A stretch of DNA of 63,449 nt, taken from the IMG/VR virus record IMGVR_UViG_3300012986_000064, positions 1 through 63,449 of that record; one strand, given 5' to 3'. Within the stretch, counting starts at the first letter, position 1. Each line of letters begins with the position of its first letter. Below the pieces are notes generated by a model, which saw nothing but the letters and a program-made list of their open reading frames with translations, had not been told where the DNA came from and searched no databases. Positions 565-26,922 of the stretch are shown piece after piece. The stretch is from a virus (taxonomy: Duplodnaviria > Caudoviricetes). Position numbers and translations under genes: made by a program.

Positions 565-575
565 AACAGGTTTAT

Positions 576-611
576 AAAAAAGCCCCGACCTATTTAGGTC
601 GGGGCTTTTTT
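576..611. terminator. Bidirectional intrinsic terminator
   Basis: AAAAAAGCCCCGACCTA-TT-TAGGTCGGGGCTTTTTT, perfect hairpin with A and T tracts between convergent genes. Confidence 0.9.
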
Positions 612-612
612 A

Positions 613-3600
613 TTACCCGCGTTCATGGTAGCGGCTATTCATTTCCTCTACCCACGTATTGTCCTTGCGGGTCCAGGTGCGCAACCCGTCCTCGGTCAGC
701 CGCTGCTCAGGCCGCGACAGGATGGCATCGACAATCCTATCCGCATCAATGCGGCTGGCCTGGTAGGCAGCGCGGGCCTCGGCTGCTTCGCGCGAACTGC
801 TGCGCCCGGCCGAATGTACGCGCAGCGCCGTGGTTTGGCGCTCCATGTCGGCGTGCTCTTTCCGGGCCACCAGCCGCCCATTTATCAGGTCGTTTTCCTG
901 CAGCAGCTGCTCGGTGCGACCGGCCGTGTACACCTTGTCGCCCGCTTCCAGCCGCTGAATGCCTTCCTGGGCCACGAGCCGGAAGCCCCGGCTTTCGTGC
1001 CCGACCAGCTCCGGGCCCCGCTCGGCAACCAGCGCGTATTCGGCCGGGCCACTTTCCCGGCCTTTGTAGTAGGTGGGCAGGGGCTTGGCCGCAATGGCCA
1101 CGGCCTGCGCCACGCCCTGGGCAATGACGAGCGCCGCCAGCACGCCGGCGCTTACCCCGAAGTCTGCGTAGCGGGTGCCGCCCCCGGTGCTGAGCACCGA
1201 CGTTACGGCCTGCGCCGTGTTCAGGGCCACGTTGAACAGGGCCTGCGCCTTGTCGTACTCGGCCTGCTTGCGCCGTGCCGCCAGCTCGCGCCGACGGTAG
1301 TTTTCCTCAATCTGCTGCCGTAGCTCGGCATTCTCGCCGGCCACGGACAGTTCCTGTTCTTTCGAGTGCTGCAGGTTGGCCAGCTCTTCCGCCCGCCGGT
1401 CGTTGCCGTACTGAAAGAAGATGTCGCTGAACGCCTGGGTTTGCTCCAGGCTGGTGCGTAGAATATCCTCGCGCTTCTGGGCCGCTTCGCGGTCCAGGTC
1501 CTCGGCCTGCTGATTCTCGCGGCGCTTGATTTCCAGCCGCAGCGCCGCGGCTTCCCGCTGCTTGGTAACGTCCTTGTCGAGGTTGGTCAGCTTGTCGCGC
1601 AGGTACTGCGTTTCCAGCCCAAACACGGCCCGCTGGTAGCCCCGCTCGGTGTAGAGGCCCAGCGCCCGGGCGTTTTCCAGCTTGGTCTGCTGCTCGGTGT
1701 AGCGTTTGTCCAGGTCGCTGTTGCTCAGGTCCGCGTTGGGGTTGCGGGTCTTGCGCAGCTGCTCGGCAATGGCCGCATCCTCCTGCGCCTGAATCTGCTT
1801 TAGCACTTCCGCGTCGCCTTTGGCCGCGTTGCGCTTAATGGCCGATTCTATCAGGACGATTTCAATGCGCTTGGCACTGGCATCGAGCAGGGCCTGCTGC
1901 CGCTCTTCGGCGCTGCGGTTTTCGTCTTCGCCGATGCGCTCCAAGGCCTGGGCCTCTTCGTCGAGCACCTGCTTATCGACTTCGGCCAGCTGGGCCGCGG
2001 TTTCGTGGGTTAATGCCAGCAGTGCCGCGTCGGAGCTGATGTTGAGGGCCTTGATTTTGGCCAGGAACTGCTCGTGGATGTGCTGCCGCTCCACACGCAG
2101 GGCCTTATCCCCATTTACCAGCTTGGCGTTGCGCACCGCCGCCTGCCGCAACTCTTCCTGCTCTTCGAGGGCTGCAATCTGCCGGCGGGTTTCGGCCGCT
2201 TTCTGCACGGCGCGGGTGCGTACCTCGTCAGAGTTGGCGTCGTTGCCGGCCTGCCGGTCGTAGTCGGCCGCTTTCTGCTCGAGGCGGAATTTCTGCAACT
2301 CAAATTCAGCGTGCAGCACGTCGGCTACCGACTGCTTTTTCTTCTTGTCGGCTTTCACCGAGTCGTCTACTTTCTCCGTCTGGTCTTTCGTCGACTGGGT
2401 GAGCAGGGCAAACGCGCCTTCCGCATCGAGCCCCAGCCGGGCCAGCTGCCGCAGCACCTCGTCCCGCTTTTTCTCCGAAAACACGGCCTTATCCGTCGCG
2501 GCGGCGCTGCGGGTGGTCAGGTCCAGGTACTCTTTGTAGGTCTGCACGACTTCCGGCGTTACCCGGTCATCGGGTGCCCCGTACAGGGCCGGGTTGCTGG
2601 CTTTTTCGGCCTGCACCCGCATCACGCGCAAAATATCGGCTTGCCCCTGCAGGCCGGTCGCAGCCGTCAGGGAGCGCTCGCGAATAGATGCTTCCTCCTG
2701 TAGGGCGGATGCCAGGGCAGCAGCGGCCTCGCGCTCCTCTTCGAAGCCCTTCAGGCGCTTGGCCAGGTTGGTGGCATCCTCCGTGAACTTGTCGCGGTTG
2801 GCCTTGGTGTTGCGGGCGACAGCGGCCGTGTTCAGGTCGTACTGCCCGGTCTGCCTGTTAAGCACCACGGCCGTTTCGCCCAGCCGGTCTTTCAGCTGCA
2901 GCACGGTTTCGCGCAGCTGCTGCTGCTCGGCATCGGTCCGCTGGGTGATGCTGTTGAGGCGCGTAAAGCGAGCCATCAGCGCATCGGTGCCGTCGGCAAA
3001 CTGCCGGGCCTTCAATGCCGACGTGGCCAGCCCTTCGCCCAGGTCGGCAATGGGGGGCTTGCTCAGGCCCACCAGGCGGGGAATGGCCCCGAAGCCCTTG
3101 CTAAAGTTCAGCGAGGCCCGGGCCCCATCAACCAGCCACTTCAGCGATGCCGCGCCGGCCCCGCTGGTGAAGAAGTTGCTTACGTCGTTTTTGAGCTTTG
3201 CCCACGAGCCGGCCAGGTTGTCGTTTTTAATGGCAGCCTCCGCTGCCAGTGATGTGCCCTGCTCCAGCTGCTCATTGGCAATGGCCTGCTTTTCGGCCAG
3301 CAGGTCCACGTTTTTGGCCAGCGTGGTAATTACCGACTTCGCTTCCCCGCTCTGCAGCTTCAGCGTACCCAGCAGGCTGTTGAACCTGGTGGTGCTGGTG
3401 CCGCCCTCGCGCAGGCCGCGCAGGAACAGGGTAATGGCGCCCTGAAAATCGTTGTTCACCAGCCGCTTGAATTCCTTCAGCGTCAGGTTGGAATCCGCGA
3501 GCTTGGCAATCTTGAACGATTCTTCGGAGCGGGTGCTGAGTGTATTAAACAGCCGGTTCAGCGACGTGCCGCTGACCTCGGCATTAAAACCGGTTTCCTG

Positions 3601-5097
3601 CAACACGGCCGCATACGCCAGCACGTCTTTCAGGCCCAGCTCCGCATTGGAGGCCACGGCCCCGGTGCGCAGGGCCACGTCGGTGAGGAACGGTGCCGTC
3701 GCGGCGCCGCTGGCTCCCAGCTCATTCACGGCGGAGCCGATGCGCCGGATGTTGTCGGGCACATCGTCGCCCAGCTCCTTGCGGAAGACGGTGCCAATCT
3801 TGCCGATTTCGGTGGCAATCTGCTCGGCCCCGCCCTGAAAGTCATCCTCCAGCGCCTGCACGGCCACGTCGACTTCGCGCGTAAAGTCGCCGATGTCTTT
3901 GCCAGCAATGCCCAACTGGCCGCCTACTTTGGCAATGTCGAGCAGCCCGGCCAGGGTGGTGCGGGTGTTCAGGGCCTTCAGGCTCTCGGTGAGCTGGTCG
4001 GTGGCGTCGGCCGATAGCTGCGTGGTTTTGCGCACATCAGCTATCTGGTCGGAGTACTCGGCTACGCTCTCAAACGTCTGGCCCAGGGCGCCAATCAGGG
4101 CCGTTACGCCCAGGAAGGACGTAACCAGCGACTGGCCCATGCCCGCCGCGCCACTGATGAAGCTGTTGGAGGCGGCGCCCCCGTTGCGGGCCGCCGCGCC
4201 GTACTTGTTGAGCTCGCCGGTGATGCTGCGCAATTCGGCTTCGGTGCGGTCGATTTCGGCCCGCAGCTTGCGGTTTTCCTCGGCACTGATGTGGCTGGCA
4301 TTGGCCTGCATCTTCAGGGCCTGCACCTCGCGGGTCAGCGCCTCGCGCTTATGGTTGAGGGCCGTCGTGGCTTCGATGATGCCACGGGCGTAGGAACCCA
4401 CCTCCCGGAAGTTCTGATTCAGCTCCCGGTCGAAATCCTTCAGCTTTTGGGTATTGTCGAAGAATTCCTTCTTCATCCGGGCCGCCGCCTCGTTGGTGGC
4501 ATCGAAGCCACCGGGCAAGGCCCGGATTTTATCACCCAGCTTTTCGGTTTCGATGCGCAGGCGGTTGTAAGAGCCCGCGACGGCCGTGAACTCCGAGTTG
4601 GCCCCGCGAATCGCTTTGCTGAGCTGATCGGTGTCGCGCTTGTACTGCTGCACAGCCAGCGCCGCCTTGGTGATGCGCTCGGCATCGTTGGCCGCGTAGG
4701 CTTCTTTCAGCTCTTTCTGCAGGGCACGCAGGGCCGCTGTAGCTTCCTTGTCGGCATTGGTCGCAGCCTGCCGGATGCTGGCCTGACCCCGCAGGGCGGC
4801 CTGGTAGTCCTGCTGCTCTTTGGCCAGCTTGTTAACCTCCGCGCTGAGCCGGGCAAGGCTGGCCCGCTCGGCTTCGCTGGTGGTGTTGAGTTGTTCGGCC
4901 TGCTGCCGCAGCGCCTGGGTGCCGGTGGTGATGGCTTGCAGGCCCGCGCCAATGCGCTGCCCGTCGGACTCCAGGTTTTTGCCCAGAACTTTCACATACC
5001 GGCTCAGGGTCGCGACGGATTTACCCAGCTCGTCAAGCTCAGCACGGCCTGGGCCGGTGGGTCCGAATAATTCGTCGAAAGAAATAGGTCCAGCCAT
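613..5097 (-). CDS. Tape measure protein 1 (TMP1, ~1494 aa, TP901-like core)
   Basis: Long Ala-rich coiled coil with core ADVRKTT...LLDIAKVGGQLGI...GTSLNRLF and C-terminal ERGPEL motif; start MAGPISF (5097) chosen by homology to the TMP2 N-terminus. Confidence 0.9.
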   Translation of the reverse strand: MAGPISFDELFGPTGPGRAELDELGKSVATLSRYVKVLGKNLESDGQRIGAGLQAITTGTQALRQQAEQLNTTSEAERASLARLSAEVNKLAKEQQDYQAALRGQASIRQAATNADKEATAALRALQKELKEAYAANDAERITKAALAVQQYKRDTDQLSKAIRGANSEFTAVAGSYNRLRIETEKLGDKIRALPGGFDATNEAAARMKKEFFDNTQKLKDFDRELNQNFREVGSYARGIIEATTALNHKREALTREVQALKMQANASHISAEENRKLRAEIDRTEAELRSITGELNKYGAAARNGGAASNSFISGAAGMGQSLVTSFLGVTALIGALGQTFESVAEYSDQIADVRKTTQLSADATDQLTESLKALNTRTTLAGLLDIAKVGGQLGIAGKDIGDFTREVDVAVQALEDDFQGGAEQIATEIGKIGTVFRKELGDDVPDNIRRIGSAVNELGASGAATAPFLTDVALRTGAVASNAELGLKDVLAYAAVLQETGFNAEVSGTSLNRLFNTLSTRSEESFKIAKLADSNLTLKEFKRLVNNDFQGAITLFLRGLREGGTSTTRFNSLLGTLKLQSGEAKSVITTLAKNVDLLAEKQAIANEQLEQGTSLAAEAAIKNDNLAGSWAKLKNDVSNFFTSGAGAASLKWLVDGARASLNFSKGFGAIPRLVGLSKPPIADLGEGLATSALKARQFADGTDALMARFTRLNSITQRTDAEQQQLRETVLQLKDRLGETAVVLNRQTGQYDLNTAAVARNTKANRDKFTEDATNLAKRLKGFEEEREAAAALASALQEEASIRERSLTAATGLQGQADILRVMRVQAEKASNPALYGAPDDRVTPEVVQTYKEYLDLTTRSAAATDKAVFSEKKRDEVLRQLARLGLDAEGAFALLTQSTKDQTEKVDDSVKADKKKKQSVADVLHAEFELQKFRLEQKAADYDRQAGNDANSDEVRTRAVQKAAETRRQIAALEEQEELRQAAVRNAKLVNGDKALRVERQHIHEQFLAKIKALNISSDAALLALTHETAAQLAEVDKQVLDEEAQALERIGEDENRSAEERQQALLDASAKRIEIVLIESAIKRNAAKGDAEVLKQIQAQEDAAIAEQLRKTRNPNADLSNSDLDKRYTEQQTKLENARALGLYTERGYQRAVFGLETQYLRDKLTNLDKDVTKQREAAALRLEIKRRENQQAEDLDREAAQKREDILRTSLEQTQAFSDIFFQYGNDRRAEELANLQHSKEQELSVAGENAELRQQIEENYRRRELAARRKQAEYDKAQALFNVALNTAQAVTSVLSTGGGTRYADFGVSAGVLAALVIAQGVAQAVAIAAKPLPTYYKGRESGPAEYALVAERGPELVGHESRGFRLVAQEGIQRLEAGDKVYTAGRTEQLLQENDLINGRLVARKEHADMERQTTALRVHSAGRSSSREAAEARAAYQASRIDADRIVDAILSRPEQRLTEDGLRTWTRKDNTWVEEMNSRYHERG

Positions 5098-5099
5098 AA

Positions 5100-5459
5100 C
5101 TACGGATGCATTAGTAAGGTGTAGCTGATGCCGGCGAGAAGGGCAGCACCGGCCCAATTGAGCAGCCCCCGCCGGCGGGCGCGGGCTTTCCAGGTAGCGG
5201 CCTGTCGGCTCTGCTCGTCGAAGGCGGCCACGGCCGTCAGCCACGCCACGGTTGTGGTGCGCAGCTGCAGGGAATCAGCTTCGTAGGCCGCTTTGTAGTG
5301 GCCCGCCGCTACCGCAAAATCCCGCCGCTGCCGGCGCAGGGTGGTCAGCGTGTCGGCCAGGCGCACCCGCGTTGCTGGTGCCAGGCAGCGGAACTCAGAG
5401 GGTTGACAGTACACTGTCTGAGTAGTGCACAGTAGCAGGAGTAACAGGAGTAGGCGCAT
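5100..5459 (-). CDS. Spanin-like lysis protein (signal peptide, helix, C-terminal TM)
   Basis: MRLLLLLLLLC N-terminus; C-terminal hydrophobic segment; last gene of the holin cluster, overlapping the upstream gene. Confidence 0.5.
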   Translation of the reverse strand: MRLLLLLLLLCTTQTVYCQPSEFRCLAPATRVRLADTLTTLRRQRRDFAVAAGHYKAAYEADSLQLRTTTVAWLTAVAAFDEQSRQAATWKARARRRGLLNWAGAALLAGISYTLLMHP

Positions 5460-5652
5460 GGGGAGCAGTGGCACGGTGAAGGGCAGCGCGGCCGAGTTGG
5501 GCCGCTGCTGCGCCGGGGTTTGGGTTGGGGGTGGGGTTGGCCGTTGTAGCGGGCGGGGCGTAGGCCACCAGCCAGAACAGCAGGGCCACCAGGGCAGCCA
5601 AGCCGCACAGGCCCATGGCGACGGGCAGCCAGGACGGGGAGTAGGCTTTCAT
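5395..5652 (-). CDS. Inner-membrane spanin-like protein (N-terminal TM, Pro-rich tail)
   Basis: MKAYSPSWLPVAMGLCGLAALVALLFWLV then Pro/Thr-rich; position downstream of the holin. Confidence 0.45.
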   Translation of the reverse strand: MKAYSPSWLPVAMGLCGLAALVALLFWLVAYAPPATTANPTPNPNPGAAAAQLGRAALHRATAPHAPTPVTPATVHYSDSVLSTL

Positions 5653-5654
5653 GG

Positions 5655-6104
5655 CTATTCCGTCTGGGTGGTGGTTTCTACCTTGGTCGTAGTGGTAGCC
5701 GTGGGGGTGGGCCCCGGCACTGGCTGCCCTGTCAGCCCGGCCTGCTGCACGTCGGCTTCGGCCTTGATTTTCTTCGTGTTTTCGTACATGTTGAACCCAT
5801 GCCCAGCAGCCAGGTAGGTGAGTAGCGGCCAGAGCACGTCCGGCTGCCACTTATCGGTCAGGCAGCCGCGGACCACAATGGCCCCCACGTACATGGTCAC
5901 GGCCCACAGGCTGAGCTGCTTGCCGTCCGCGCGCCCGCGGGGGTCGGTGAAGCTCTCGCCAAAGAAGCCGGCCAGCTCACGGATGAATTGGCGGTTGAGC
6001 AGCCAGGCCACGCAGAGCCCAACGGCCAGCCCTGCCAGGCAGGCCAGCACGGCGCCCATAACGGTAGGCGAGAAGGAGGAGAAAAAAGCGATGGGCTCTT
6101 GCAT
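5655..6104 (-). CDS. Holin-like membrane protein (3 TM)
   Basis: Three hydrophobic segments, polar C-tail, lysis-cluster context. Confidence 0.55.
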   Translation of the reverse strand: MQEPIAFFSSFSPTVMGAVLACLAGLAVGLCVAWLLNRQFIRELAGFFGESFTDPRGRADGKQLSLWAVTMYVGAIVVRGCLTDKWQPDVLWPLLTYLAAGHGFNMYENTKKIKAEADVQQAGLTGQPVPGPTPTATTTTKVETTTQTE

Positions 6105-6112
6105 GGCGGGGC

Positions 6113-6505
6113 TTATTTGTCGGAGATAAAATCAGCAAGGGGAATGCCCAGGTGCTGGGCAATGCGCAGCGTCAGCCGCCACTGCTGGCCGTCGAGCTTG
6201 CCCGACTCGTGCAGGTTGCTGAGCACGTCGGCCAGCTGCTGCAGGTAGTGGCGGTACTTCTCGCCCAGCTCGGCCCGCACGTCCTGATTCGCGGTATTGG
6301 CCTTCACCACTTCCCCGTGCAGGCGCTCAGCCGTGGCCTGGTGCGCAGCCTTTTCTTTGAGCAGCTGCACGACCAGCCAACCCACGGCGAGCAGGGCCAG
6401 GGCCAGCAGCACCGACACGACGGCCAGGGCAATGCCCACGTCCCAGAGCAGGGGCAACCCGCGCGTGAGCGCGGTTTCGGCGGCTTTGGTTCCTAGTTCG
6501 TTCAT
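6113..6505 (-). CDS. Holin/antiholin-like protein (1 TM + coiled coil)
   Basis: Single long hydrophobic helix followed by heptad region; ATGA overlap with the upstream gene. Confidence 0.5.
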   Translation of the reverse strand: MNELGTKAAETALTRGLPLLWDVGIALAVVSVLLALALLAVGWLVVQLLKEKAAHQATAERLHGEVVKANTANQDVRAELGEKYRHYLQQLADVLSNLHESGKLDGQQWRLTLRIAQHLGIPLADFISDK

Positions 6506-7365
6506 GCGGCGGGGGTAGAAGTAGAAGAGCGGGGAAAGCGGGATAGCACGTCGTCGAGGTGAGCTTCGGCCCGGCGGGTCAGCTCCTGGTCGCGGGCCGC
6601 AAACAGGGCCCGCACGTTTTCTTCATCGTCGGTGAAGGAGGTGATGCGCAGCACGCTGCCATCGGCCGCGACGTGGTTGCCGGCCGACACGCGCACCCAG
6701 CGCCGCCCGCCATCGGCCGTCAGGAATTCCATGGGGTATTCCACATGCCCCACCTTGCCGACCTGCTTTTTCACCTGCTCGTGCCGCTGCTCGGGCACAA
6801 TGGACGCGCCATGCAGCGACACCAGCCCGTTGCGCTCATCCGTTTCGTAGGCGTAGCCCAGCATGGCACAGGCCCGGCGGTTGGCCGCCGTGATGCGCCA
6901 CCCCAGCGGAGTAGTCGCATCGGGCCGGGAATAGAGCACCCCACAGTTGCTGGCATCAAGGGTGGCATGCAGCAGCCGGTCGCGCTCAATCACGGCCACT
7001 TCCGGGTACAGGCTTTCCAGGGCCCCGCGCCGGGCCCAGCAGTAGCCGGCGAAAGTCAGGGTGAAGATGGCCGCGGCCGTTTTCAGGTAGATGTGGGTAA
7101 CAGCGTTATATAAGCCCAGCGCCTCGTTGATGAATTCAAACGCGAAGGCCCCGGCAATGCTCAGCAGCCAGAAAAACACGATGCGGGCGAAGCTTTTCCC
7201 GTCGACCGTCTGCGCCACCCGGGCCCGCCGGGCCACATACAGCACCGTAGCGGGCAGCAGCACACCAAACGAGGCCGCCAGCAGGGCATTGGCCACCAGG
7301 GCGAGGTACAACACGGGCAGGGGCGTAATGGGCAGGGCGAGCGGAAGCATGGGCGACGGGGGCAA
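6502..7365 (-). CDS. Membrane sensor: 3-TM domain + PAS domain, no output domain
   Basis: PAS signatures ANRRACAMLGY, E(F)LTADGGRRWVRVSA, ITSFTD; three N-terminal TM helices. Confidence 0.75.
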   Translation of the reverse strand: MPPSPMLPLALPITPLPVLYLALVANALLAASFGVLLPATVLYVARRARVAQTVDGKSFARIVFFWLLSIAGAFAFEFINEALGLYNAVTHIYLKTAAAIFTLTFAGYCWARRGALESLYPEVAVIERDRLLHATLDASNCGVLYSRPDATTPLGWRITAANRRACAMLGYAYETDERNGLVSLHGASIVPEQRHEQVKKQVGKVGHVEYPMEFLTADGGRRWVRVSAGNHVAADGSVLRITSFTDDEENVRALFAARDQELTRRAEAHLDDVLSRFPRSSTSTPAA

Positions 7366-7378
7366 AGGGTGGGGGCGA

Positions 7379-7597
7379 CTATTTCAGGCAGTCCGGCACG
7401 GCCTGCGGCACGAAGTCCGTATCGGCCAGCTCTTCCAGGGTGTAGTCGAGGGCGTCGAACAGCGGGGCAAAGTCCACCAGGCACATGGGCGCGAAAGCAA
7501 AGCGGCCGTCCAGCAGCTCGCGGCAAGCGAAGAAGTCGCCGGCCTCATTCTGGTAGCCGTCCGGGGCGGGGTTGGCAGTGGTGATGGCGTAGAGCAT
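7379..7597 (-). CDS. Small acidic protein, possible tail-fibre assembly factor
   Basis: 72-aa ORF tightly packed behind the putative receptor-binding gene. Confidence 0.55.
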   Translation of the reverse strand: MLYAITTANPAPDGYQNEAGDFFACRELLDGRFAFAPMCLVDFAPLFDALDYTLEELADTDFVPQAVPDCLK

Positions 7598-7600
7598 GGA

Positions 7601-8464
7601 TTAGACGTTGCGGCCCAGGGCCGTTAGGCAGGTGATGGCGAGGCTGTCCCAGGCGGCTTCCTGGGTAGCAGAGGCCCCCAGCAGAATGGCGGCCTCGCCC
7701 ATGGTGTGGGGTGAATTGCCGTACACACCGCCCGGGATGCCGGTGGCCCCGAGCAGCACCGAGCGCGTGGGCAGGGTGCCCGCCCCAGAGCCCGCACTGA
7801 GCAGCGTGCCGTTCTTGGTCAGTCGGTTGGTCGTCACGGCTGGCTGGCGGTTCACCGAGTACAGGCCCAGGCCACGCACGGCCGCGTTGGATTCCTGCAC
7901 GTACTGGTCAATGGTGAAGGCTTTGCAGTAGGCCACGTCGTTAAGCGAGCCCCCGGCGTTGTTGCGCCCCGATAGCGCAAACGTGGCAGAGCCCGAGGAA
8001 ACGGCCCCCATGTCGTAGCAGTCCCCGCCCAGCGCATTGCTACGGGAATAGTAGTACAGCCCCATGCCGGTGGTGAGGCTGCCCGCCACGGACGGAACTA
8101 GCAGCGTGTCGGCGTACTGCGTGGTGCCGTTCCAGGCCATGCCCCCGCCAAAAGGCGTCGGGCTGCCGTAGAGCACCAGCCGGTAGGCAGCATCCAGGTC
8201 GCGCGGGTCTTTGGCGTTGAGCTTGTTGGCGGCCGTGGTCGCGCCCAGGCAGGGCCACCAACCTAAAACGAGGCCCTGCAGCCCCGCATCCTTGATGCCT
8301 TGGAAGCGGTTATTGATGGCCGTCCAAATCTGTGCCCCCGTGCGCTCGTAGCTCGTGCCGGCGTAGAGTGACGAGCCGTCGTTTGGAATGCCGGCCGCTG
8401 TCAGGTAGGCGTAGGCATCCGCATCAAAGCCACTGCCGAGCAAAGTGTGTCGTCTGCTGCCCAT
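7601..8464 (-). CDS. Putative tail/receptor-binding protein (beta-rich, LamG/ConA-like)
   Basis: Gly/Ser/Thr-rich beta protein, WNGTTQYADT motif, tail-operon position. Confidence 0.55.
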   Translation of the reverse strand: MGSRRHTLLGSGFDADAYAYLTAAGIPNDGSSLYAGTSYERTGAQIWTAINNRFQGIKDAGLQGLVLGWWPCLGATTAANKLNAKDPRDLDAAYRLVLYGSPTPFGGGMAWNGTTQYADTLLVPSVAGSLTTGMGLYYYSRSNALGGDCYDMGAVSSGSATFALSGRNNAGGSLNDVAYCKAFTIDQYVQESNAAVRGLGLYSVNRQPAVTTNRLTKNGTLLSAGSGAGTLPTRSVLLGATGIPGGVYGNSPHTMGEAAILLGASATQEAAWDSLAITCLTALGRNV

Positions 8465-8466
8465 CG

Positions 8467-9960: not shown

Positions 9961-9969
9961 GCCAGAGAA

Positions 9970-9996
9970 TTAATGTTTGTAAAGTAAGTACATTAA
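9970..9996 (-). promoter_or_regulatory. Palindromic late-gene element copy 1 (TAATGT-N13-ACATTA)
   Basis: TTAATGTACTTACTTTACAAACATTAA on the minus strand, just upstream of the 9960 ATG. Confidence 0.8.
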
Positions 9997-10027
9997 TCGC
10001 GCTTTGCCATACCGGCCCGGCATCTGC

Positions 10028-11824
10028 TTACCCACGCAGGCGCAGGAAGCCGCCCAGGCGCAGCGTCAGCAGCGAATCCTGCTGGTCGGCCTGCAGCTGG
10101 TCGTCGCCGTTGCCTGTGCCCAGGAACGGCACCTGCTCCAGGTCGATGCGGCCGTTGCTGAGCGGGTAGGCCCGCTGCTCGCTCGCTTCGTAGACATTCT
10201 CGCCGGCCCGGTACATCCGCCCGTTCACCCGCAGCCAGTCGAGCCGGCAGGCCAGGTACAGCTTTTCGTGCAGGTAAGGCGGCAGGCCCTGGGTTTCGAG
10301 CGCGAGCAGCCGCGCGGCCGTGCTGGTGAGCAGCACCGGCGTGTAGTCGGAGTTGCGGTGTACGCTCAGCTGGCCGCCGTTTTTCTGCCGGAAAAACACG
10401 CCCGGCACCCGCAGCCGCGGCGTGAAGCCGGTGCTGAAGACCGTGCCGTAGCAGTTATCCGAATTCTTGTACTCTACCAGCACCGTGGTGGGGTGCTCGT
10501 AGGCCAGGCGCCACGGCTCGCTGATGGCCGTGACCGTGCCCCAGGCGGGGTTGCTGGGCTGCGAGGCGTGCAGCCGCATTTCGTACAGCCCTTCCGGTAG
10601 GCTGGCCGTGTTCGCTGCGACTTCCCACACGTTGAAGTTGGCCAGGCTCACCGGCCACTCGATGCTCACCACGTCAGGGCCCGTTTCCCAGCGGCGGTTC
10701 AGCACCACGTAGTCATCGCTGCTCACCAGGCTGGCCCGGCCGCTGCGCAGCACCCGGTAGGTTTGGTCACCGCCGGGCAGCCCGTGCACCACGACGCGCT
10801 TAGCCGCCAGCAGGTCAGCCGGAAAGCCCATGCCGGCCGGCTGCAGCAGCGTAAAGCCGTCGGCGCTGCTGCTCAGCTCCACGTCCATGGCAAACGACCA
10901 GCCGGTGAGGGCCAGTACCTTTTCCATGGGCTGAATCAGCACGGCCACACCATCACTGACCCGGTGCACCACGGCCTGCACCTGCTCGTAGTTGGTGAGC
11001 ACCTGCACCGGCAGCGGGTCACACTTGGCCACGCGCTGGTAGAAGAGCGGCCGCCGCTGCATGCCGGGCCGGGTCTGCGCACAGAACAGCGTGTTGTCGG
11101 TGGTTTCGAACGTGCCGCAGTTGTCGGGTATTTCGGGCACCACAAAGCGCAGGCCGTTGAGCAGGGGCACGGCAAAGAACGGGGTTTGCGCCGGGGGCGT
11201 GTAGGTGCAGGAGCCGTTGTCGAAAGTGGCCGTGGGGTCGTAGTTGTCGGCCGTGGTGTCGGTGCAGCCGCCTACTTCCGCTTCCGGCACGGTCACGAGC
11301 AGGTCGGCGGTGGTGCCGCTGGCATCCGTGGCCCGCACGGTGTACACCCCGGCGAGCATTCCCGTGAAGGTGTACTTGCCCGAGCCGTCCGGTACCAAGC
11401 CGCTGGGCCCACTGGGCGGGTTCAGCGCAAGCAGCACCCCGCCGGCGCTGCTGGTCGCCTGCACCGTGAAGGTGCCCGTCGCCGTGCCGAAGCTGGTGGG
11501 CGCGTTTACTTCCGACAGGGTTAATTCCAGGTCTGACACCGTGCCGCAGCTGACCGTTAAGTAGGTGTTGTCAGCATCGTAGCGGGCGCCGCCGCGGTAG
11601 CAGCGCACCTGCGTGCGGTAGTTTTGGTCGGGCAGGGCGCCGCTGCCCATTGGCAAGTCCAGCGGGTCGAACGGAAAGCCATAATCTATGCCGTCGTCGA
11701 AGCCGACAATCAGAAACTCCCAGGTGTCGGGGTCGCTGGGCAGGGCGTGAGTCGCCGTTTGCAGCGCAATGAATCCGCCGTCGGACTGGCAGCTTTGCGA
11801 GGTGGTGTAGTTGATAAACGGCAT
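10028..11824 (-). CDS. Tail/baseplate structural protein with Ig/SprB-like domain and GCTD...NY...AT.D.GSC repeat
   Basis: FTGMLAGVYTVRATDASG and GCTDTTADNYDPTATFDNGSC motifs; tail-operon position. Confidence 0.6.
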   Translation of the reverse strand: MPFINYTTSQSCQSDGGFIALQTATHALPSDPDTWEFLIVGFDDGIDYGFPFDPLDLPMGSGALPDQNYRTQVRCYRGGARYDADNTYLTVSCGTVSDLELTLSEVNAPTSFGTATGTFTVQATSSAGGVLLALNPPSGPSGLVPDGSGKYTFTGMLAGVYTVRATDASGTTADLLVTVPEAEVGGCTDTTADNYDPTATFDNGSCTYTPPAQTPFFAVPLLNGLRFVVPEIPDNCGTFETTDNTLFCAQTRPGMQRRPLFYQRVAKCDPLPVQVLTNYEQVQAVVHRVSDGVAVLIQPMEKVLALTGWSFAMDVELSSSADGFTLLQPAGMGFPADLLAAKRVVVHGLPGGDQTYRVLRSGRASLVSSDDYVVLNRRWETGPDVVSIEWPVSLANFNVWEVAANTASLPEGLYEMRLHASQPSNPAWGTVTAISEPWRLAYEHPTTVLVEYKNSDNCYGTVFSTGFTPRLRVPGVFFRQKNGGQLSVHRNSDYTPVLLTSTAARLLALETQGLPPYLHEKLYLACRLDWLRVNGRMYRAGENVYEASEQRAYPLSNGRIDLEQVPFLGTGNGDDQLQADQQDSLLTLRLGGFLRLRG

Positions 11825-11827
11825 GGC

Positions 11828-14041
11828 TTACGCGGAAAGCACCGCACAGGCCAGCAGGGTAAAGTCTCCCTCTTTCTTGGCGGCGTTGTGTTTGACAGTG
11901 AGCACCCAGCCCTCGCAGGGCCGGCTTTTGGCGTCGAGAAACCGCACCCGGCCGTAGGGCTGGGCGAAGAGCTGCGCGGCTTGGGGTGCCGTCAGCGGGC
12001 AGGTAAACGTGTAGTCGAGCGGCAGCCAGAGCGGAGCGGCCAGCTCATCGGTGAGCACGTCGGCCGATTCGGCGATGTCGGCCGTTTCGGTCTGCAGGCG
12101 GCTCACCACGTTGTTGTTGCCTTCCCCAAAGGCGAAGCGCACCACGGCCGAGCCGCCCAGCGGGGCCAGGCCGGCCCGCAGCGCGGCCCCGTGGTTGCGC
12201 AGGTTGCGGGCCGGGCTCCAGATGGCGTTGTACACCGTTTCGGGCGAGAGCATGCCATCGAGCCGGGCAAAGCGCTGGTTGCGCTCGGTTTCAAACCCGC
12301 CCCCGTCCTTGCGCAGCAGGGCAATCAGGAAGTTGTTGTTATCGGTGGCGCCGTCCGTGGTTGAGGTTTCGCTGTAGCGCTGCCGGCGCACCAGCTCCAG
12401 GCGCAGACCGCTGGTGATGTACCGGCTCACGGCCGTGAGGGCATTCTTAATCCGGGTCAGGGGTGTGGTCCACTGCCGCTTTGTGTTGAACTCATCAAGG
12501 CCGTTGACGCCTTCGGGCTCCCAGGTTTCGTAGCCGACCTCCACCGTGTTGTAGTGGCGCTCGGCATTGACTTTGGCCGTGGCATCGAGTGGCCCCAGGC
12601 CGGTGAGGTCCAGCACCACCTGAGCCGGGTAGAAGTAGGCCATGGGTTCCACGCGCACCACCGATTTACCCGTGGGCTGCAGCCGCTCGATGCCGTAGCC
12701 CAGGCCGTGAATAGCGGCCAGCGAGTCGTAAAGCTCGCGCCACGAGGCAAACAGCGACTTGCGTGAATCCGGCGCCGGGGCCGTGGGCGACGCATCAAAT
12801 GGGGTGGGGAAGCCCCGCAGCTGAAAGCCGCCCGCCACCAGGGCCAGTGCCCCCGGCCCGTCTTCGTCGTAGGGAATGCGGGTGTCGGTGCGGCCGAAGT
12901 AGGTGCTGCGGAAGGCGTCGGGCGTGTCGGCAAGGGCCGTGCTGAGCCGGTCCAGTGCTTCATACACCAGCAAGCCGTTGCAGGGGGTGGGGGCGGTCTG
13001 CGTCACGGCCGTAATGCGCAGGTACGACCCTTGCTCCAGCGTGGCGTAAACAGTTGTATTAAAAGTTACTATGCCAGTGTCGGGGTTGTGGTAGTAAAGC
13101 TCCGCGTAGAGGTACACCGCATCGTTTTCATTCAGCGTTGCCTGAATTGTGGTTGGCGGAATGGCAAACTGATGGGAGTAGCGGTTTCCATCTATGGCAG
13201 TGGTGAAGGAGTCCGTGGCCAGCACAGTAGCCGTGCTAGGGTCGCCGTTGATGCGGAAGTGGTACTTGATGTCGATAGTGCGCCCGCCGGGTCCCATCAG
13301 CGTCTGAATGGTATCGGTAAGCGCAAACTCAATGGTAAGTTCTTCTTGGCCCTTAGCCTGGTAAATGGGCACGGCCGTTGTCGCGTCGCCCGAAGTCAGT
13401 ACCGGCGAGCCGGCCGCAAGGCCTAGTTCATCTGTTGTTACCTTGGCAAAGCCGAAGTAGCGCGTCTGCGAGCGGCTGTCGTCGTCAAAAAAAAGCCCTT
13501 CGCTTATGACGGGAGGCAGGTTCGCCGGGTTTGAAACATCATGCCGCTTCACCACGGCACGGCTGTGCAGCTCCACCGTTAGCGGGGTTTCTTGGCGACT
13601 GGCAGCCCCGCTCACAGTAGTGTTGCCCCACAGGTCTATTGGCACATCGTCGCGGTTCAGGAAACGCTGGCTGAAGTCTTCGTTTTCGACGTTGCACCTA
13701 ACCTCCGTGCTGGTGAACTCAGCGTCTGAAAAATCAATACGCCCCCGGTAGTACTCGTCGTATAGCCAAGTGTTGGGGTTTTCCTGCTCAATGAGGACCC
13801 GCACGTCAGCTTCAATGCCCAGCGTGGCGTAGGCTAGCTCCAGATAGGCTTTGGCTTCCTTGATGAAGCCCATCTGAACTGAATAGTCAAGCAGAAGGCC
13901 ATGTGTCGCAGATGAGCGGGTAAGCGTTTTCCCTAATTCGTCCCAGCCGATGGGGTCGTTTTTGAGCACGAGCGGGCCTAAAATGTCGCTATCGAGGGTG
14001 AAGCGAAACCGGGGCGAGTTTTGGGCGAGTAGAGTTGTCAT
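11828..14041 (-). CDS. Tail tip/baseplate hub-like structural protein (~737 aa)
   Basis: Directly downstream of TMP2; start MTTLLAQ (14041) supported by the duplicate N-terminus at 22579. Confidence 0.7.
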   Translation of the reverse strand: MTTLLAQNSPRFRFTLDSDILGPLVLKNDPIGWDELGKTLTRSSATHGLLLDYSVQMGFIKEAKAYLELAYATLGIEADVRVLIEQENPNTWLYDEYYRGRIDFSDAEFTSTEVRCNVENEDFSQRFLNRDDVPIDLWGNTTVSGAASRQETPLTVELHSRAVVKRHDVSNPANLPPVISEGLFFDDDSRSQTRYFGFAKVTTDELGLAAGSPVLTSGDATTAVPIYQAKGQEELTIEFALTDTIQTLMGPGGRTIDIKYHFRINGDPSTATVLATDSFTTAIDGNRYSHQFAIPPTTIQATLNENDAVYLYAELYYHNPDTGIVTFNTTVYATLEQGSYLRITAVTQTAPTPCNGLLVYEALDRLSTALADTPDAFRSTYFGRTDTRIPYDEDGPGALALVAGGFQLRGFPTPFDASPTAPAPDSRKSLFASWRELYDSLAAIHGLGYGIERLQPTGKSVVRVEPMAYFYPAQVVLDLTGLGPLDATAKVNAERHYNTVEVGYETWEPEGVNGLDEFNTKRQWTTPLTRIKNALTAVSRYITSGLRLELVRRQRYSETSTTDGATDNNNFLIALLRKDGGGFETERNQRFARLDGMLSPETVYNAIWSPARNLRNHGAALRAGLAPLGGSAVVRFAFGEGNNNVVSRLQTETADIAESADVLTDELAAPLWLPLDYTFTCPLTAPQAAQLFAQPYGRVRFLDAKSRPCEGWVLTVKHNAAKKEGDFTLLACAVLSA

Positions 14042-14067
14042 ATAATGTACGTAAAGTAAGTACATTA
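13928..14067 (-). repeat. Inverted repeat arm A (late element + first 38 codons of the tail gene)
   Basis: Reverse complement aligns with 22549-22692; 99/114 nt identical over the coding part by manual alignment. Confidence 0.9.
14043..14067 (-). promoter_or_regulatory. Late element copy 2
   Basis: TAATGTACTTACTTTACGTACATTA followed by T-ATG (leaderless start). Confidence 0.8.
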
Positions 14068-14076
14068 TTGACGGTT

Positions 14077-17000
14077 TTATTGCCGTCTATATCGCTTGTT
14101 CACCTTCTGTAACCAAGTGTCGCCTTTTTTCACAAATCGCTGCAACTCTCCCTCGCTTACTCGCAATTGCTCCTGGCTCTCTACGGCCTGCACTATCCGG
14201 TCGCCTAGTCGCTCCAGGTCGAGGCGACTGCTATGATAAGCTGCGCGCGCCGCCGCCGCTTCTCGGCTAGCTTGCCTACCAGGTGCAGAAGCGCGGAGAG
14301 ATTGCGCCTGCTGTTCCATATCTGCTTCGTAGCGACGCTGAACAAGCCTGCCGCCTATTAACTCGTTCTGCTGCAATATCTGCTCTGTGCGAGGCGCAGT
14401 AATTACACGGTCTCCTGCTTCTAGGCGGGTTACGGTTTCCTGGGCCACCAAGCGGAAGCCCCGGCTTTCGTGGCCTACCAATTCAGGGCCACGCTCGCCA
14501 ACGATAGCTAATTCTGCGGGGCCTCCTTCGCGGCCTTTGAAATAAGCTGGCAACGGCTTAGACATTACAGCCGCTATTTGTGCCGCCCCTAAAACGCCCA
14601 CAGCCGCCCCAAAGGCGATACCTACAGGGCCAGGAAATTCAGCAACGGCAGCAATAACCGCCTGCGCCGTGTTGATAGCAATGCTGAAAATAGCAGCAGC
14701 CTTATCAAACTGGGCTTGCTCCCGCTTCAAGGCCAGGCTACGGCGGTGGAAATTATCTTCAATTTGAGCCCGTAGCACAGCGTTTTCTCCTGCATTGGCG
14801 AGGTTGCGGTCCCGCTCTGCCTGAATGTTATCCATCTCAGCCGAACGCAGGTCGCTGCTGTATTGAAAAAAAGCATCAGCATACGATTGGGTAATAGCGA
14901 AGCCCTGCTGAATAATGCGCCGCTTAGTTTCCTCCTTTTCTCTAAACTCAGCTAGTTCACGGTCATTTTTACGCCTAGCAATTTCTAGCTCCAGGTCAGC
15001 CGCTTCTTGTTGCTTGGTTGCGTCCTTTTTAAGGTTGTCCAGCTTCTGCTGCAAGTTGGCATCCTCTAGCAGTTCCAGTGTGCGGTAATACTGCTTTTCG
15101 GTATATTCCCCGGCCGCTCGGCTGTTTTCAAGCGCTAGCTGTTGCGCCCGATATTGCTTAGCTAGGTCATCATTAGCAAGGTCGGCATTGAACGGGCGGG
15201 CGGCGGCTTGAATAGCGGCCGTGTCGTTAGCCTGTTTCTGCCGAATCTCTTTGATTTTGCCGGCGCTTCCCTGTGCAGCCCGCACTTCTTTGTCGGCTTG
15301 CAAATCGACTATCTCAATGCGCCGGTCAGCCGCCTGAAGCGCGGCTTGCTGCCTTTCTTGGTAAGTCAGGTTTTCATTGGCAACAATGCGGTCTAGCGCA
15401 GCCAGTTCCCCCTCAATAACCAACCTGTCTACGTCTGCTAATTGGTCCAGCAGGGCATTACGCAAGGCCAATAGCCGCTTGTCGCCAGTGCGCTCAATCT
15501 CAATCGACTTGTTTTTAAAGTCTTCACTCAGCCGCACCCGCACCACGCCTAAAGCTTGCTCGCCGTTGATTTTTTCGGCATTGGCCTGTCGGGCCTCTCG
15601 CAGCAATTCATTTTGTTCCAGCTTGGCTAGCTCAATCCGGGCAGCAGTGCCTTTCTGTGCGGCCCTGGTGCGGATTTCTTCGCTATTAGCAGGATTGTCG
15701 TATTGGCGGTCTAAGTCTGCAATCTGGGCTTCTAGCTGTTGTTTGCGACGCAGGTATTCCTCCTTCGCCACATCAGCCACCGCCGCCTTTTTCTTCTTAT
15801 CGGCTTCGAAGTCGTCGGTGGTTGCCTGGGTGTTTGCTTTGGTGGCGTCTGTTGTTTTCTTGGTCAATGCAGCCAATGCAGCCGCAATACGGGCGCGCTC
15901 CTGCTGCTGTCGCTTCAATTCGGCCTCCGATTCAGCCAGGGCTTTTTCAGCCGTCGTAAGCGCTTCTACCGTGCGGACTTGGGTTTTGGGTAAGTTGTCG
16001 ACTTCCCGCGTTTGCGCCGTTGGCCCCAGGGTCTTACGAACTTCCTCCCGGTATGCCAACGCCTCCCGAATGTCCTTAACCCTGCTTTCGCCAATGCCAG
16101 CCTTCGTGACACCTAATTGAGCCTTACCCACGGCCTGTTGCAACTCGGCAACTTGCCCTTCTACGCTGGGCAGAATAGTGCTATCAAAGTAGGCTAGCTG
16201 GTCAGCAAGCAGGTCTTTATTAATCTGTGCCTGTCTCTGCTTTGCAGCAATAGCCCTTCCTACAGCCGACGTATTTAGGCTTAGCGCCTGGGTGCCTTTA
16301 TCCACTTGCACGACTTCGCTGCCCAGCATCTTTTGCAGGCGCAGGGTAATGTTGTTGAGCTCCACCTGCTGCGCGCTGGTACGGGTCGCGGCGGCCGTTA
16401 ATTGCTGGTAGCGGTCTAGTAGCTTCTGCGCCTCTTCTGCTTGTTTAGCCAGACTTTTGGTAGCAGACAGGGTGCTGCTTGCAAAATCCACGGGGGCCTT
16501 TGTGGGTAATACGCTATCCAGCCCCAGTTTCTTACCGAACGAACTTTTAGCAACCGCCTCACTGGCAGCCAGCGCCTGCGTTTTAATGTACCGGAACGCG
16601 TCGCCCACGGCTTGCAGGCGAGCCCGTTGCTCATCGATAACATCTTTGAGTTGCCCCGCAAAGAAGCCTTCCGTGAACAGATTAGAAAGGCCGTTTTTCA
16701 ACTTCGCCCACGAACCGGCCAGGGTATCATTTTTAACAGCCGCTTCTGCTGCCAATGACGTGCCTATTTTCAGTTGTTCATTGGCTGTTTTTTGCCGCTC
16801 GGCTACCAGCTCTGTGTTTTTGGCGAGGGCAGTTAATGCGCTCTTGGCTTCGCCGCTGTTCAGTTTCAACGTGGCGAGCTTTGCTGAAAAGGAAGTGGTT
16901 GTGGTGTTACCACTGTTCAACCCGCGCAAGAACAATTGCAGGGCCGCGTCCATGTCCGTATTAAGCAGCCGCTTAAATTCTTTCAACGTCAGGTTAGTAT

Positions 17001-18609
17001 CAGCCAGCTTGGCAATACGGAAGGCTTCAGCAGTGCGCCCTGTCAGGGTGTTGATGATACGATTTAGGGCAGTGCCCGAAACCTCAGCTGAAAAGCCTAA
17101 CTCCTGCAGCACGGCCGCATAGGCTAGTACTTGAGGCAAGCCAACTCCTGCATTGGCCGCCGTGGCACCTACGCGCAGCGCTACATCGGCAAGCTGTGGC
17201 GCGGTGGCTGCGCCAACCGCCCCCAACTCATTTAAGGCACTGCCAATGTCTAGTAGCTTCTGTTCGGTATTCTTGCCCTCAAACTGCTTGCGGAAAACCA
17301 CGCCGATTTTGCCTAGTTGCGTAGCTATTTCCTCTGCATTGCCTTGGAAATCGTCGGAAAGGGCTTGGTTGGCAATGTCAATGGCTTTGGTAAACCCTAA
17401 GACCTCATCCTTCGCAATGCCGAGTTGGCCCGCAACTTTGGCAATATCCAATAGCTCCGCAAGGCTGCTGCGAGTGTCAATCTGCTTTAAGTTCTCAGCC
17501 AGGCGCGCGGCTTCGTCGGCTGAAAGCCCGGTTGTCTTTCTAACATCCGCGAGGGCATCACTATAATTTACCAGGTCGCTAAATACGCCTTTTAGCACCG
17601 TGGCCAGCCCCTGCACACCAAAATAAGCCCCGGCGAATGCCTGGCCCAGCCCGCCTACATTGTTAGCCAGCCCAGCCGTAAACCCGCCGCCCTGCTTCAC
17701 GCCCACGCCGTAGTTGCGAAGCTGCCCGTTTACCTTGCCCAGCTCGGCTTCTGTCTGCTTGATTTCGGCCTGTAGCTTATTCTGCTGCTCAGTCGATAAG
17801 CCCGTAGCCTGCGACTGAGTACGCAAGGCAGCCGCGTCAGCCAGCAGGGCACGGCGCTGCTTTTCCAGCGCCCCTACGGCCTCAATGATACCCTCTGCAT
17901 ATCGGCCAACATTCTTATAGCCCTGGTTCGTGTCCTTGCCAAAGGTTATGATGGCTTGGTTGACTTCTGCCAGTCGGGCCTTCATCTGCTGGGCTTCTGC
18001 GCTGTCAGCCTGCATACCCCCGGCCAGCGCCTTCAATTGCGAGTCGAGTTGTCGGGCCTCGTTTTCCAACGCCCGGTAGCTGCCCTGCGCTGCCGTAAAG
18101 GAGCTATTCGCCCCGCGCAAGGCACGGTTCAGGTCTTCGGTTTCCCGCTTCAGGGCCAGGATAGCCTGAGCCGCTTGCTTGGCCACCTCTGTGTTTCCCG
18201 CTGCATAGGCTTCGCGCAAAGCATCCCGCTGCTTTTTTAGTTCGGCCGTGTAACCCTTTACCGCCTCGCCAGCGGCCTTATCGATGCCCGCTTGACCTGC
18301 CTTGGCTGCTTTGAGCAACTGCTGCTGCTGGGCAAGTTTCGCTATTTCGGCACCTAATGCAGCCAATGATGCCCGCTCTTGCTCGCTTGCCAGATTGATG
18401 CCTGTAACCTGGGTGCGTAGCGCCTGAGTATTCTGGGCAATCAACGCCAACCCGGTTGCCACCTTGGCCCCGTCGGCTTCAATATTTTTGGCAAATGCCT
18501 TGTAATTGCGGTTGAGCGCCTGTACTTCTTTTGTGAAGTCGGCTAGCTCCTGCTTGCCGGGTCCAAGCTCATTAAATAGCTCGGAATAGGAGATGGGGCC
18601 TGCTGCCAT
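14077..18609 (-). CDS. Tape measure protein 2 (TMP2, 1510 aa, TP901-like core)
   Basis: Same architecture as TMP1 (ADVRKTT, LLDIAKVAGQLGI, LAGSWAKLKN, ERGPELVGHESRGFRLVAQE); visibly more A/T-ending codons. Confidence 0.9.
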   Translation of the reverse strand: MAAGPISYSELFNELGPGKQELADFTKEVQALNRNYKAFAKNIEADGAKVATGLALIAQNTQALRTQVTGINLASEQERASLAALGAEIAKLAQQQQLLKAAKAGQAGIDKAAGEAVKGYTAELKKQRDALREAYAAGNTEVAKQAAQAILALKRETEDLNRALRGANSSFTAAQGSYRALENEARQLDSQLKALAGGMQADSAEAQQMKARLAEVNQAIITFGKDTNQGYKNVGRYAEGIIEAVGALEKQRRALLADAAALRTQSQATGLSTEQQNKLQAEIKQTEAELGKVNGQLRNYGVGVKQGGGFTAGLANNVGGLGQAFAGAYFGVQGLATVLKGVFSDLVNYSDALADVRKTTGLSADEAARLAENLKQIDTRSSLAELLDIAKVAGQLGIAKDEVLGFTKAIDIANQALSDDFQGNAEEIATQLGKIGVVFRKQFEGKNTEQKLLDIGSALNELGAVGAATAPQLADVALRVGATAANAGVGLPQVLAYAAVLQELGFSAEVSGTALNRIINTLTGRTAEAFRIAKLADTNLTLKEFKRLLNTDMDAALQLFLRGLNSGNTTTTSFSAKLATLKLNSGEAKSALTALAKNTELVAERQKTANEQLKIGTSLAAEAAVKNDTLAGSWAKLKNGLSNLFTEGFFAGQLKDVIDEQRARLQAVGDAFRYIKTQALAASEAVAKSSFGKKLGLDSVLPTKAPVDFASSTLSATKSLAKQAEEAQKLLDRYQQLTAAATRTSAQQVELNNITLRLQKMLGSEVVQVDKGTQALSLNTSAVGRAIAAKQRQAQINKDLLADQLAYFDSTILPSVEGQVAELQQAVGKAQLGVTKAGIGESRVKDIREALAYREEVRKTLGPTAQTREVDNLPKTQVRTVEALTTAEKALAESEAELKRQQQERARIAAALAALTKKTTDATKANTQATTDDFEADKKKKAAVADVAKEEYLRRKQQLEAQIADLDRQYDNPANSEEIRTRAAQKGTAARIELAKLEQNELLREARQANAEKINGEQALGVVRVRLSEDFKNKSIEIERTGDKRLLALRNALLDQLADVDRLVIEGELAALDRIVANENLTYQERQQAALQAADRRIEIVDLQADKEVRAAQGSAGKIKEIRQKQANDTAAIQAAARPFNADLANDDLAKQYRAQQLALENSRAAGEYTEKQYYRTLELLEDANLQQKLDNLKKDATKQQEAADLELEIARRKNDRELAEFREKEETKRRIIQQGFAITQSYADAFFQYSSDLRSAEMDNIQAERDRNLANAGENAVLRAQIEDNFHRRSLALKREQAQFDKAAAIFSIAINTAQAVIAAVAEFPGPVGIAFGAAVGVLGAAQIAAVMSKPLPAYFKGREGGPAELAIVGERGPELVGHESRGFRLVAQETVTRLEAGDRVITAPRTEQILQQNELIGGRLVQRRYEADMEQQAQSLRASAPGRQASREAAAARAAYHSSRLDLERLGDRIVQAVESQEQLRVSEGELQRFVKKGDTWLQKVNKRYRRQ

Positions 18610-18614
18610 AGAAT

Positions 18615-18653
18615 TAACCTTTAATGTTTGTAAAATAACAACATTAAAGGTTA
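18615..18653 (-). promoter_or_regulatory. Late element copy 3 with extended 14-bp arms
   Basis: TAACCTTTAATGTT...AACATTAAAGGTTA immediately upstream of the TMP2 ATG. Confidence 0.75.
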
Positions 18654-18678
18654 GTCAGACCAGCAAGGCTAGCAAGGG

Positions 18679-18966: not shown

Positions 18967-18969
18967 GCC

Positions 18970-19008: not shown

Positions 19009-19013
19009 CGCGC

Positions 19014-19793: not shown

Positions 19794-19796
19794 AGC

Positions 19797-22548: not shown

Positions 22549-22692
22549 TTAATGTACTTACTTTACAAACATTAAACCATGAGCACCCTCCTCGCCCAGA
22601 ACTCGCCCCGCTTTCGCTACACCCTGGATAGCGACATTTTAGGCCCGTTCGTGCTCAAAAACGACCCCATTGGCTGGGATGAGTTGGGCAAG
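22549..22692 (+). repeat. Inverted repeat arm B (late element copy 4 + tail-gene N-terminus)
   Basis: TTAATGTACTTACTTTACAAACATTAA (22549-22575) then MSTLLAQNSPRFRYTLDSDILGPFVLKNDPIGWDELGK. Confidence 0.9.
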
Positions 22693-25652: not shown

Positions 25653-25672
25653 AGCGAAGGAATAAGTGAATT

Positions 25673-26915: not shown

Positions 26916-26922
26916 GTATACT

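Follow-up and report, generated by a model that had tools for sequence, protein, structure and literature searches.

A single tape measure protein (TMP), exemplified by gpH of lambda, is the rule among siphophages, and the gene order tube, chaperone, tape measure, tail tip is a highly dependable landmark of their genomes. Mosaic phage genomes arise by recombination between relatives (modular exchange as conceived by Hendrix), the mycobacteriophage Marvin has an atypical placement of tail genes, and Mu G and P1 C are invertible tail-fibre segments. According to passages of PMC3556154, the siphophage TMP gene follows a frameshifted chaperone pair, and the length of the TMP predicts the length of the tail. 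Here we analysed the virus record IMGVR_UViG_3300012986_000064 of IMG/VR, the whole of which (63,449 bases) is referred to as the window, and found that it carries two full TMP genes, TMP1 and TMP2, a pair that is non-tandem, of mixed origin and unique among the relatives examined. It is probable, in our view, that this prophage is a recombinant mosaic of two related Hymenobacter siphophages that had the TMP gene in different places, and that the two TMPs are redundant.

Akin to TMPs of the TP901-1 type (PF10145), both window TMPs are about 1500 residues long and score above the family cutoff, and TMP2 has a G/GT-type chaperone pair on one side and the tail-tip genes on the other. Unlike the TP901-1 type and lambda, the window has two full TMP genes, with TMP1 outside that slot, some 9 kb downstream as the last gene of the operon, and with four other genes between the chaperones and TMP2. 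As in mosaic genomes and in Marvin, a block of foreign composition is bounded at or inside homologous genes and the synteny of the tail module is broken, but here the exchanged module would be the TMP itself, and a copy would have been added and none replaced, the resident copy being located in another place. As in Mu G and P1 C, there is a block among the tail genes with inverted repeats on either side, but no invertase was found in a scan of the block genes and their neighbours, the arms are only 86% identical and no alternative fibre ends are swapped. No description of two full TMP genes in one phage was found among the listings and matching passages of full-text searches (including PMC2147016); the phrase matches concerned chaperone pairs or database homologs, not pairs of TMPs.

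Two tape measure genes of separate origin

The frames of both TMPs are open, without stop or frameshift, and a BLASTP alignment of the two proteins is colinear, starting at residue 1 and reaching almost to the end, and has 705 identities over 1537 positions (46%, E = 0). Both proteins exceed the Pfam cutoff of 33.2 bits for PF10145 (PhageMin_Tail), TMP1 with 52.2 and TMP2 with 56.1 bits, so that the preliminary description of this DNA, made from the letters alone, was right to call them intact, paralogous and colinear TMPs of nearly equal length. Homologs are named TP901-family TMPs in their source records, and Gly/Ala-rich hydrophobic stretches can be read from the sequence of both. Searches of PDB sequences with both TMPs gave no match. 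A longer GTG frame of TMP1, extending to 5244, is not needed. The near-equal length, which had been taken as a special trait of the pair, is a property of the family rather than a sign of co-adaptation, because lengths range from 1419 to 1513 aa across the whole family (median 1489).

A search of 5.8 billion proteins returned 121 relatives at E <= 1e-20, and a tree was built from 38 full-length members (P0002-P0040 minus P0015, which covers only 51%; P0041-P0121 were left out). In this tree TMP1 was nested, with H. algoricola and others, in clades with SH-aLRT values of 100, 99 and 98, while TMP2 formed a lone deep branch; the two were not sisters, and the end branch of TMP2 was 0.46 vs 0.29 for TMP1. 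The nearest relative was 59% identical for TMP1 and 49-50% identical for TMP2. A recent tandem or segmental duplication within the genome was ruled out, as the copies are not sisters and TMP1 is closer to its nearest relative (59%) than to TMP2 (46%).

Composition provided a second distinction. The G+C content at third codon positions (GC3) was 0.81 for TMP1, 0.66-0.88 for 22 backbone genes and 0.84 and 0.88 for the chaperone genes; it was 0.58 for TMP2, 0.50 for the lipoprotein-like gene and 0.52 for the endonuclease gene upstream of it. Because of this low GC3, TMP2 and its two upstream neighbours are the foreign-looking part of the locus; TMP1 and the chaperone genes have a native composition. 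The preliminary description took TMP2 for the normal gene and TMP1 for the anomalous one, a premise that has to be reversed for this lineage: TMP2 is the compositional outlier, and the two closest relatives keep their sole TMP in the place of TMP1.

As synonymous sites are saturated at 46-59% protein identity, constraint was gauged not by dN/dS but by leaving out one protein at a time and scoring it on the columns with at least 90% conservation among the remaining 37. TMP1 kept 209 of 217 such columns and TMP2 202 of 219, the single-copy members ranging from 0.83 to 0.99. Identity between TMP1 and TMP2 was 61-66% in the core, 55% near the C-terminus and 15-23% over residues 682-872, and it tracked the conservation profile of the family.

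A palindromic late element (TAATGT..TTTAC..ACATTA) occurs in six copies in the window, compared to 0.18 expected. TMP2 has a late element of its own, as previously described, in a copy with 3 mismatches; before TMP1 none was found within 3 mismatches. The placement of TMP1 at the operon end was likewise borne out, a gap of 3 nt separating its ATG from the stop of a 124-aa gene, with a strong terminator behind TMP1. Late expression of both genes is thus plausible from the layout, TMP2 through its own late element and TMP1 through operon read-through. A sigma-70 promoter/terminator scan was uninformative, with 26 terminator-like sites in positions 1-19999 vs 23.9 expected.

The inverted block and TMP placement in relatives

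An inverted repeat of 142 nt with 86% identity (13929-14067 and 22691-22550) flanks the segment 14068-22549, which runs from the chaperone pair to TMP2. The left arm carries a late element and the first codons of the 745-aa tail-tip gene, and the right arm a late element and, as a stub, 38 codons of a second tail-tip allele. Between the arms 14 of these shared codons differ, with 11 synonymous and 3 non-synonymous changes, and this ratio argues that the two tail-tip copies diverged as working genes in separate genomes and that the stub is not a decaying copy. Codons ending in G or C are more frequent in the stub than in the 5' end of the tail-tip gene as it now stands, and the stub keeps a divergent junction with the chaperone G gene (chapG), as in the three closest relatives (G060, G066 and G135, below). 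Within the 745-aa gene GC3 rises from 0.63 over the first 100 codons to 0.89 over codons 601-700; its 5' part may have arrived with the TMP2 block. The stub is read as the mark of an inversion. PDB sequence searches with the 745- and 598-aa tail-tip proteins gave no match, so a 'Dit'-type label for the 745-aa gene is positional only.

The 259-aa endonuclease encoded within the block has a nuclease domain match and a patchy distribution, as expected of a free-standing homing-type enzyme (T5orf172 / GIY-YIG-like), homing and cleavage being predicted activities. Homologs were detected in 21 of 165 Hymenobacter genomes, with a best identity of 43%, and are thus sporadic in the genus; in two of 19 related loci they lie at other places. 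In one of the related loci (L022, 15196-17975) an endonuclease homolog precedes an inverted block of homologs of the tube and the 111-, 190- and 128-aa genes, with an incomplete second copy of the tube gene, oppositely oriented, at its far end. The arrangement resembles the stub and inverted block of the window, and no DNA-level inverted repeat was found for the L022 block. The 95-aa lipoprotein-like gene is placed like a moron and has no family match; that its product acts in exclusion is only a guess.

The chaperone pair is present once in the window. Its -1 frame is open across G, with an A-run slippery site (22089-22098) that precedes the stop of G by seven codons, and its nucleotide similarity to G060 is 69%. 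The gap between the lysozyme-like gene and chaperone T is 7 nt.

The relatives that emerged from a protein pattern search lay in Hymenobacter genomes. Ranked by portal identity, the closest were G060 (75%), G066 (61%) and G135 (60%), followed by eight others at 48-50%, and the prophages of these three have one TMP each. In G060 and G066 the sole TMP is the last gene of the late operon and comes after a gene homologous to that of the 124-aa protein (36% and 28% identity, respectively), and the chaperone pair is divergent from the tail-tip gene. The TMP of G060 begins 6 nt after the stop of the 124-aa homolog (3 nt in the window) and has no late element, whereas G066 has a terminator and a late element between the two genes. 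A PHROG scan of the ten genes around the G060 TMP gave no matches. G135 has its genes ordered chapG-chapT-TMP and diverging from the tip gene, and its TMP resembles TMP2 (44% identity over 836 aa) more than TMP1 (30% over 475 aa). The window hence unites both of the alternative TMP placements of its nearest kin.

Across 19 related loci the TMP lies beside the tail-tip gene on the same strand in nine, at the far operon end in two, in a view without tail-tip gene in one, and on the strand opposite the tail-tip gene in seven (L003, L005, L009, L020, L021, L022 and L023). The loci contrasted with these for strand and position were L006, L007, L014-L019 and L026. The TMP precedes the chaperone pair in some loci and follows it in others. 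Inspection of 18 relatives by eye revealed, in 14, an element of the TAATGT..TTTAC..ACATTA type no more than ~45 nt from the start of the TMP, the starts of L009, L020 and L021 not being located; none was seen near the TMP start of L024. Inverted repeats around the TMP were sought in eight relatives, with nothing found or late-element-sized matches only.

Double TMPs conserved in related Bacteroidetes prophages, the search for which the preliminary description had proposed, did not emerge. A profile built from three TMPs gave one match in each of five related records and matched in 39 of 165 Hymenobacter genomes, none of which had two full-length matches on one contig; where a genome gave several matches, these belonged to a single ORF or to separate contigs, a few fragmented assemblies being beyond judgement. 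In the first 632 bases of contigs C39 and C40, the genome G026 has near-equal 211-aa fragments of the TMP core (E 2e-102 and 4e-101), which suggests two similar TMP genes that broke the assembly. In L026 (7827-12436, G037:C6) the TMP is split into two overlapping frames with stops in the distal part and may be broken or frameshifted. A 225-aa ORF of L019 was dropped as a TMP fragment, the similarity being just a 45-aa local match.

Remaining features of the window

The first codon of the window is an ATG and its last a stop, and in the protein search both TMPs were recorded on a contig of 643,576 bases; the window is therefore taken as a provirus cut from a bacterial contig. These observations, together with the lack of an exact terminal repeat, ruled out a circular or terminally redundant contig. 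Read along the minus strand, the order (PHROG, Pfam) is early genes, terS, terL, a 209-aa head protein, portal and three virion proteins; then the 147-aa tail protein, genes of 111, 190 and 128 aa, a low-GC island and the chaperone pair; then the lysozyme-like gene, the 257-aa gene, the T5orf172-type endonuclease, the lipoprotein-like gene and TMP2; and finally the 745-aa tail-tip gene, the 598-aa gene, the fibre-like gene, five small or membrane proteins, the 124-aa gene, TMP1 and the terminator. An integrase and a CI-like repressor lie at the right end on the plus strand. Coordinates are given in Table 1.

The claim that the other structural genes are single held for those scanned, as terL, terS, portal and one tail protein each matched once (PHROG, n=1). 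An all-against-all BLASTP of every window ORF of at least 50 aa found no further duplicated virion gene: the only pairs were the TMPs with their antisense shadows, the 38-aa tail-tip stub and one weak 53-aa match elsewhere. A second prophage in the window was ruled out, given that no other virion gene is duplicated and that the placement of TMP1 recurs in G060 and G066. The genes preceding TMP1, labelled as lysis genes in the preliminary description, had no family matches in PHROG and Pfam scans, and the sole lysozyme-like gene detected by these scans in the window is that at 21202-21729. Among the small membrane-protein genes before TMP1, one (6502-7365) encodes a 287-aa protein with PAS-domain matches of ~20 bits, below cutoffs. 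The low-GC island (22833-31700, GC 0.39-0.53), which separates the chaperone pair from the 128-aa gene of the tail module, has its genes in one orientation, encodes a 678-aa DUF4365 protein (66 bits) and looks like a cargo or defence island. ARAGORN called a tRNA-like gene at 56189-56268 with a four-base anticodon (cgac); as Rfam had no match anywhere in the window, this tRNA is doubtful and perhaps spurious.

Table 1. Features of the window, in order of position; sizes in residues (aa).
Feature	Position	Strand	Remarks
Terminator-like hairpin	574..613	.	palindromic, T-runs on both strands; directly after TMP1 stop; read from sequence
TMP1, tape measure protein, 1494 aa	613..5097	-	from ATG, MAGPISF; gene call P0017; last gene of late operon
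124-aa protein	5100..5474	-	N-terminal signal/lipobox-like stretch, C-terminal hydrophobic helix
Fibre-like tail protein, 497 aa	8467..9960	-	late element upstream
Tail-tip protein, 598 aa	10028..11824	-	adjoins 745-aa gene in relatives too
Tail-tip gene, 745 aa	11828..14065	-	phrog_15220 virion structural protein; likely true start ATG at 14041
Inverted repeat, left arm	13929..14067	-	
TMP2, tape measure protein, 1510 aa	14077..18609	-	MAAGPISY
Late element of TMP2	18622..18648	-	TAATGT..TTTTAC..ACATTA; ~12 nt before TMP2 ATG
Lipoprotein-like gene, 95 aa	18679..18966	-	LAGC lipobox; between terminator and TMP2 late element
Endonuclease, 259 aa	19014..19793	-	phrog_681, E 2e-47; Pfam T5orf172 27.5 bits, cutoff 20
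257-aa protein	19797..20570	-	without family matches
Lysozyme-like protein, 175 aa	21202..21729	-	phrog_1259, phrog_9589; homolog at end of contig C49 of G135
Tail assembly chaperone pair	21736..22514	-	G 22074-22514, T 21736-22002; phrog_8914
Inverted repeat, right arm	22550..22691	+	ORF 22579-22836 continues from the stub into unrelated sequence
Tail protein, 147 aa	33300..33743	-	phrog_6195; single copy
Portal protein	39254..41038	-	single copy; used to rank backbone relatives
Terminase large subunit	41944..43509	-	single copy
Tyrosine integrase	62145..63449	+	right end of record
Late elements, all copies	9979, 14051, 18630, 22551(+), 41900, 44559		few to ~40 nt from start codons

Readings of the two-TMP state

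We propose the following course for a mosaic origin. TMP1 would be the resident gene, at the operon end and translationally abutted to the 124-aa gene as in the closest relatives. TMP2 would have been imported, together with the lipoprotein gene, the T5orf172-type endonuclease gene and probably the late element and the 5' part of the tail-tip gene, from a lower-GC relative with the order chaperone-TMP-tip. The resident chaperone block and the first 46 codons of the resident tail-tip allele would have been inverted, which would have left the 38-codon stub of that allele beside the chaperone genes, and the donor block recombined in, with one crossover inside the tail-tip gene. As the family spans ~1420-1510 residues with a shared conserved C-terminal end, tails of equal length, ~225 nm at 0.15 nm per residue, would be expected from either TMP with the one tip complex and the one pair of chaperones; the two TMPs would then be a tolerated redundancy and an intermediate of module exchange, not a dedicated two-TMP system. 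Of the three explanations offered in the preliminary description, that of a chimera gained from the separate TMP lineages, the sharp contrast in composition, the inversion scar with a second tail-tip allele and the failure to find two TMPs in one locus of any relative searched, while a heteromeric TMP and bet-hedging with two virion types found no support.

Several observations weigh against a mosaic of this kind. No donor was found, the best relative of TMP2 being 49-50% identical. For the TMPs of G060 and G066, similarity to TMP1 is confined to the N- and C-terminal parts (about 43% over 275 aa), so that these are its counterparts by position, not by sequence. Chimerism of the tail-tip gene is read from composition alone, because the gene is about equally distant (43-48%) from all relatives. 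The view of the locus starts at base 1 of the record, the contiguity of the window and the orientation of its 8.5-kb block are those of the assembled record alone, and expression and virion content are here deduced from the genes. Finally, both TMPs are intact and keep most of the family-conserved positions, which would also fit selection for both.

Such selection, whether for mixed trimers or for two virion kinds whose tails are equal but whose ejection proteins differ (for instance, as a means of evading host or prophage factors directed at the TMP), is nevertheless unlikely. What could be expected of it is that each gene should retain its ~1500 codons intact, with 96% and 92% of the family-conserved columns kept, and this is the case, as it is for the means of expression, TMP2 having its own late element and TMP1 being tightly joined to the operon with a terminator behind. 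The position of the lipoprotein gene directly before TMP2 would also be in keeping with it, as would the better conservation of ends and core between the TMPs than of residues 682-872, were it not that this profile simply mirrors the conservation profile of the family. Moreover, the composition of TMP2 has not ameliorated, the three closest backbone relatives manage with one TMP each, and the pair is a singleton, no second full TMP per locus having been found in the five related records or the 39 matching genomes of the 165.

Somewhat less likely still, the TMP of these Hymenobacter siphophages could be a free-standing late cassette with its own promoter element that is inverted, relocated to the operon end or swapped from phage to phage, exchanges being driven by breaks made by the T5orf172-type endonuclease; the window would then represent a two-copy state with an imported pair of lipoprotein (entry exclusion) and matching TMP, both TMPs being functional.

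It is improbable that one copy is useless in practice, with an open frame whose product is absent or fails to assemble, and is heading for loss. TMP1 might be idle for want of a late element, none being found before it within 3 mismatches, but in G060, too, the only TMP abuts the gene before it without such an element, and this layout can accordingly serve a sole TMP. TMP2 might be mismatched with the resident chaperone and tip, and it does keep fewer conserved columns (202/219) at the end of a longer branch (0.46 vs 0.29); yet its values lie inside the single-copy range, and neither gene has a stop or frameshift.

An active invertible switch, toggling the orientation of the chaperone-TMP2 segment, is very improbable. 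The 142-nt inverted repeat does flank the 8.5-kb block, and the flipped state would resemble G135, but the differences between the arms are those of two diverged alleles, and PHROG and Pfam found no invertase-type recombinase among the block genes and their neighbours, the only recombinase being the integrase 40 kb away. An assembly artefact that joined pieces of two prophages of one genome is equally hard to credit: short exact repeats do exist, in the form of late elements of 27-30 nt, but no exact repeat exceeds 30 nt, the record is part of a contig of 643,576 nt, and at least two false joins would be required. Genes also adjoin closely at the junctions: TMP1 starts 3 nt from the 124-aa gene, a tight spacing like that in G060, and the lysozyme-like gene and chaperone T are 7 nt apart.

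For a mosaic origin, recombination between genomes with a differently placed TMP gene offers a concrete route to a second TMP. A TMP with its own promoter could be moved without losing expression, which may be why the TMP family tolerates rearrangement and would explain how differently arranged genomes recombine into a two-TMP product. The related Hymenobacter prophages break both rules, that of gene order and that of one TMP per phage, one member ending up with two full TMPs. For annotation this means that a TMP outside the canonical slot need not be the remnant of a second prophage, and the window lends itself as a natural test of the ability of two TMPs, divergent but equal in length, to work with a common tip complex and a common chaperone.

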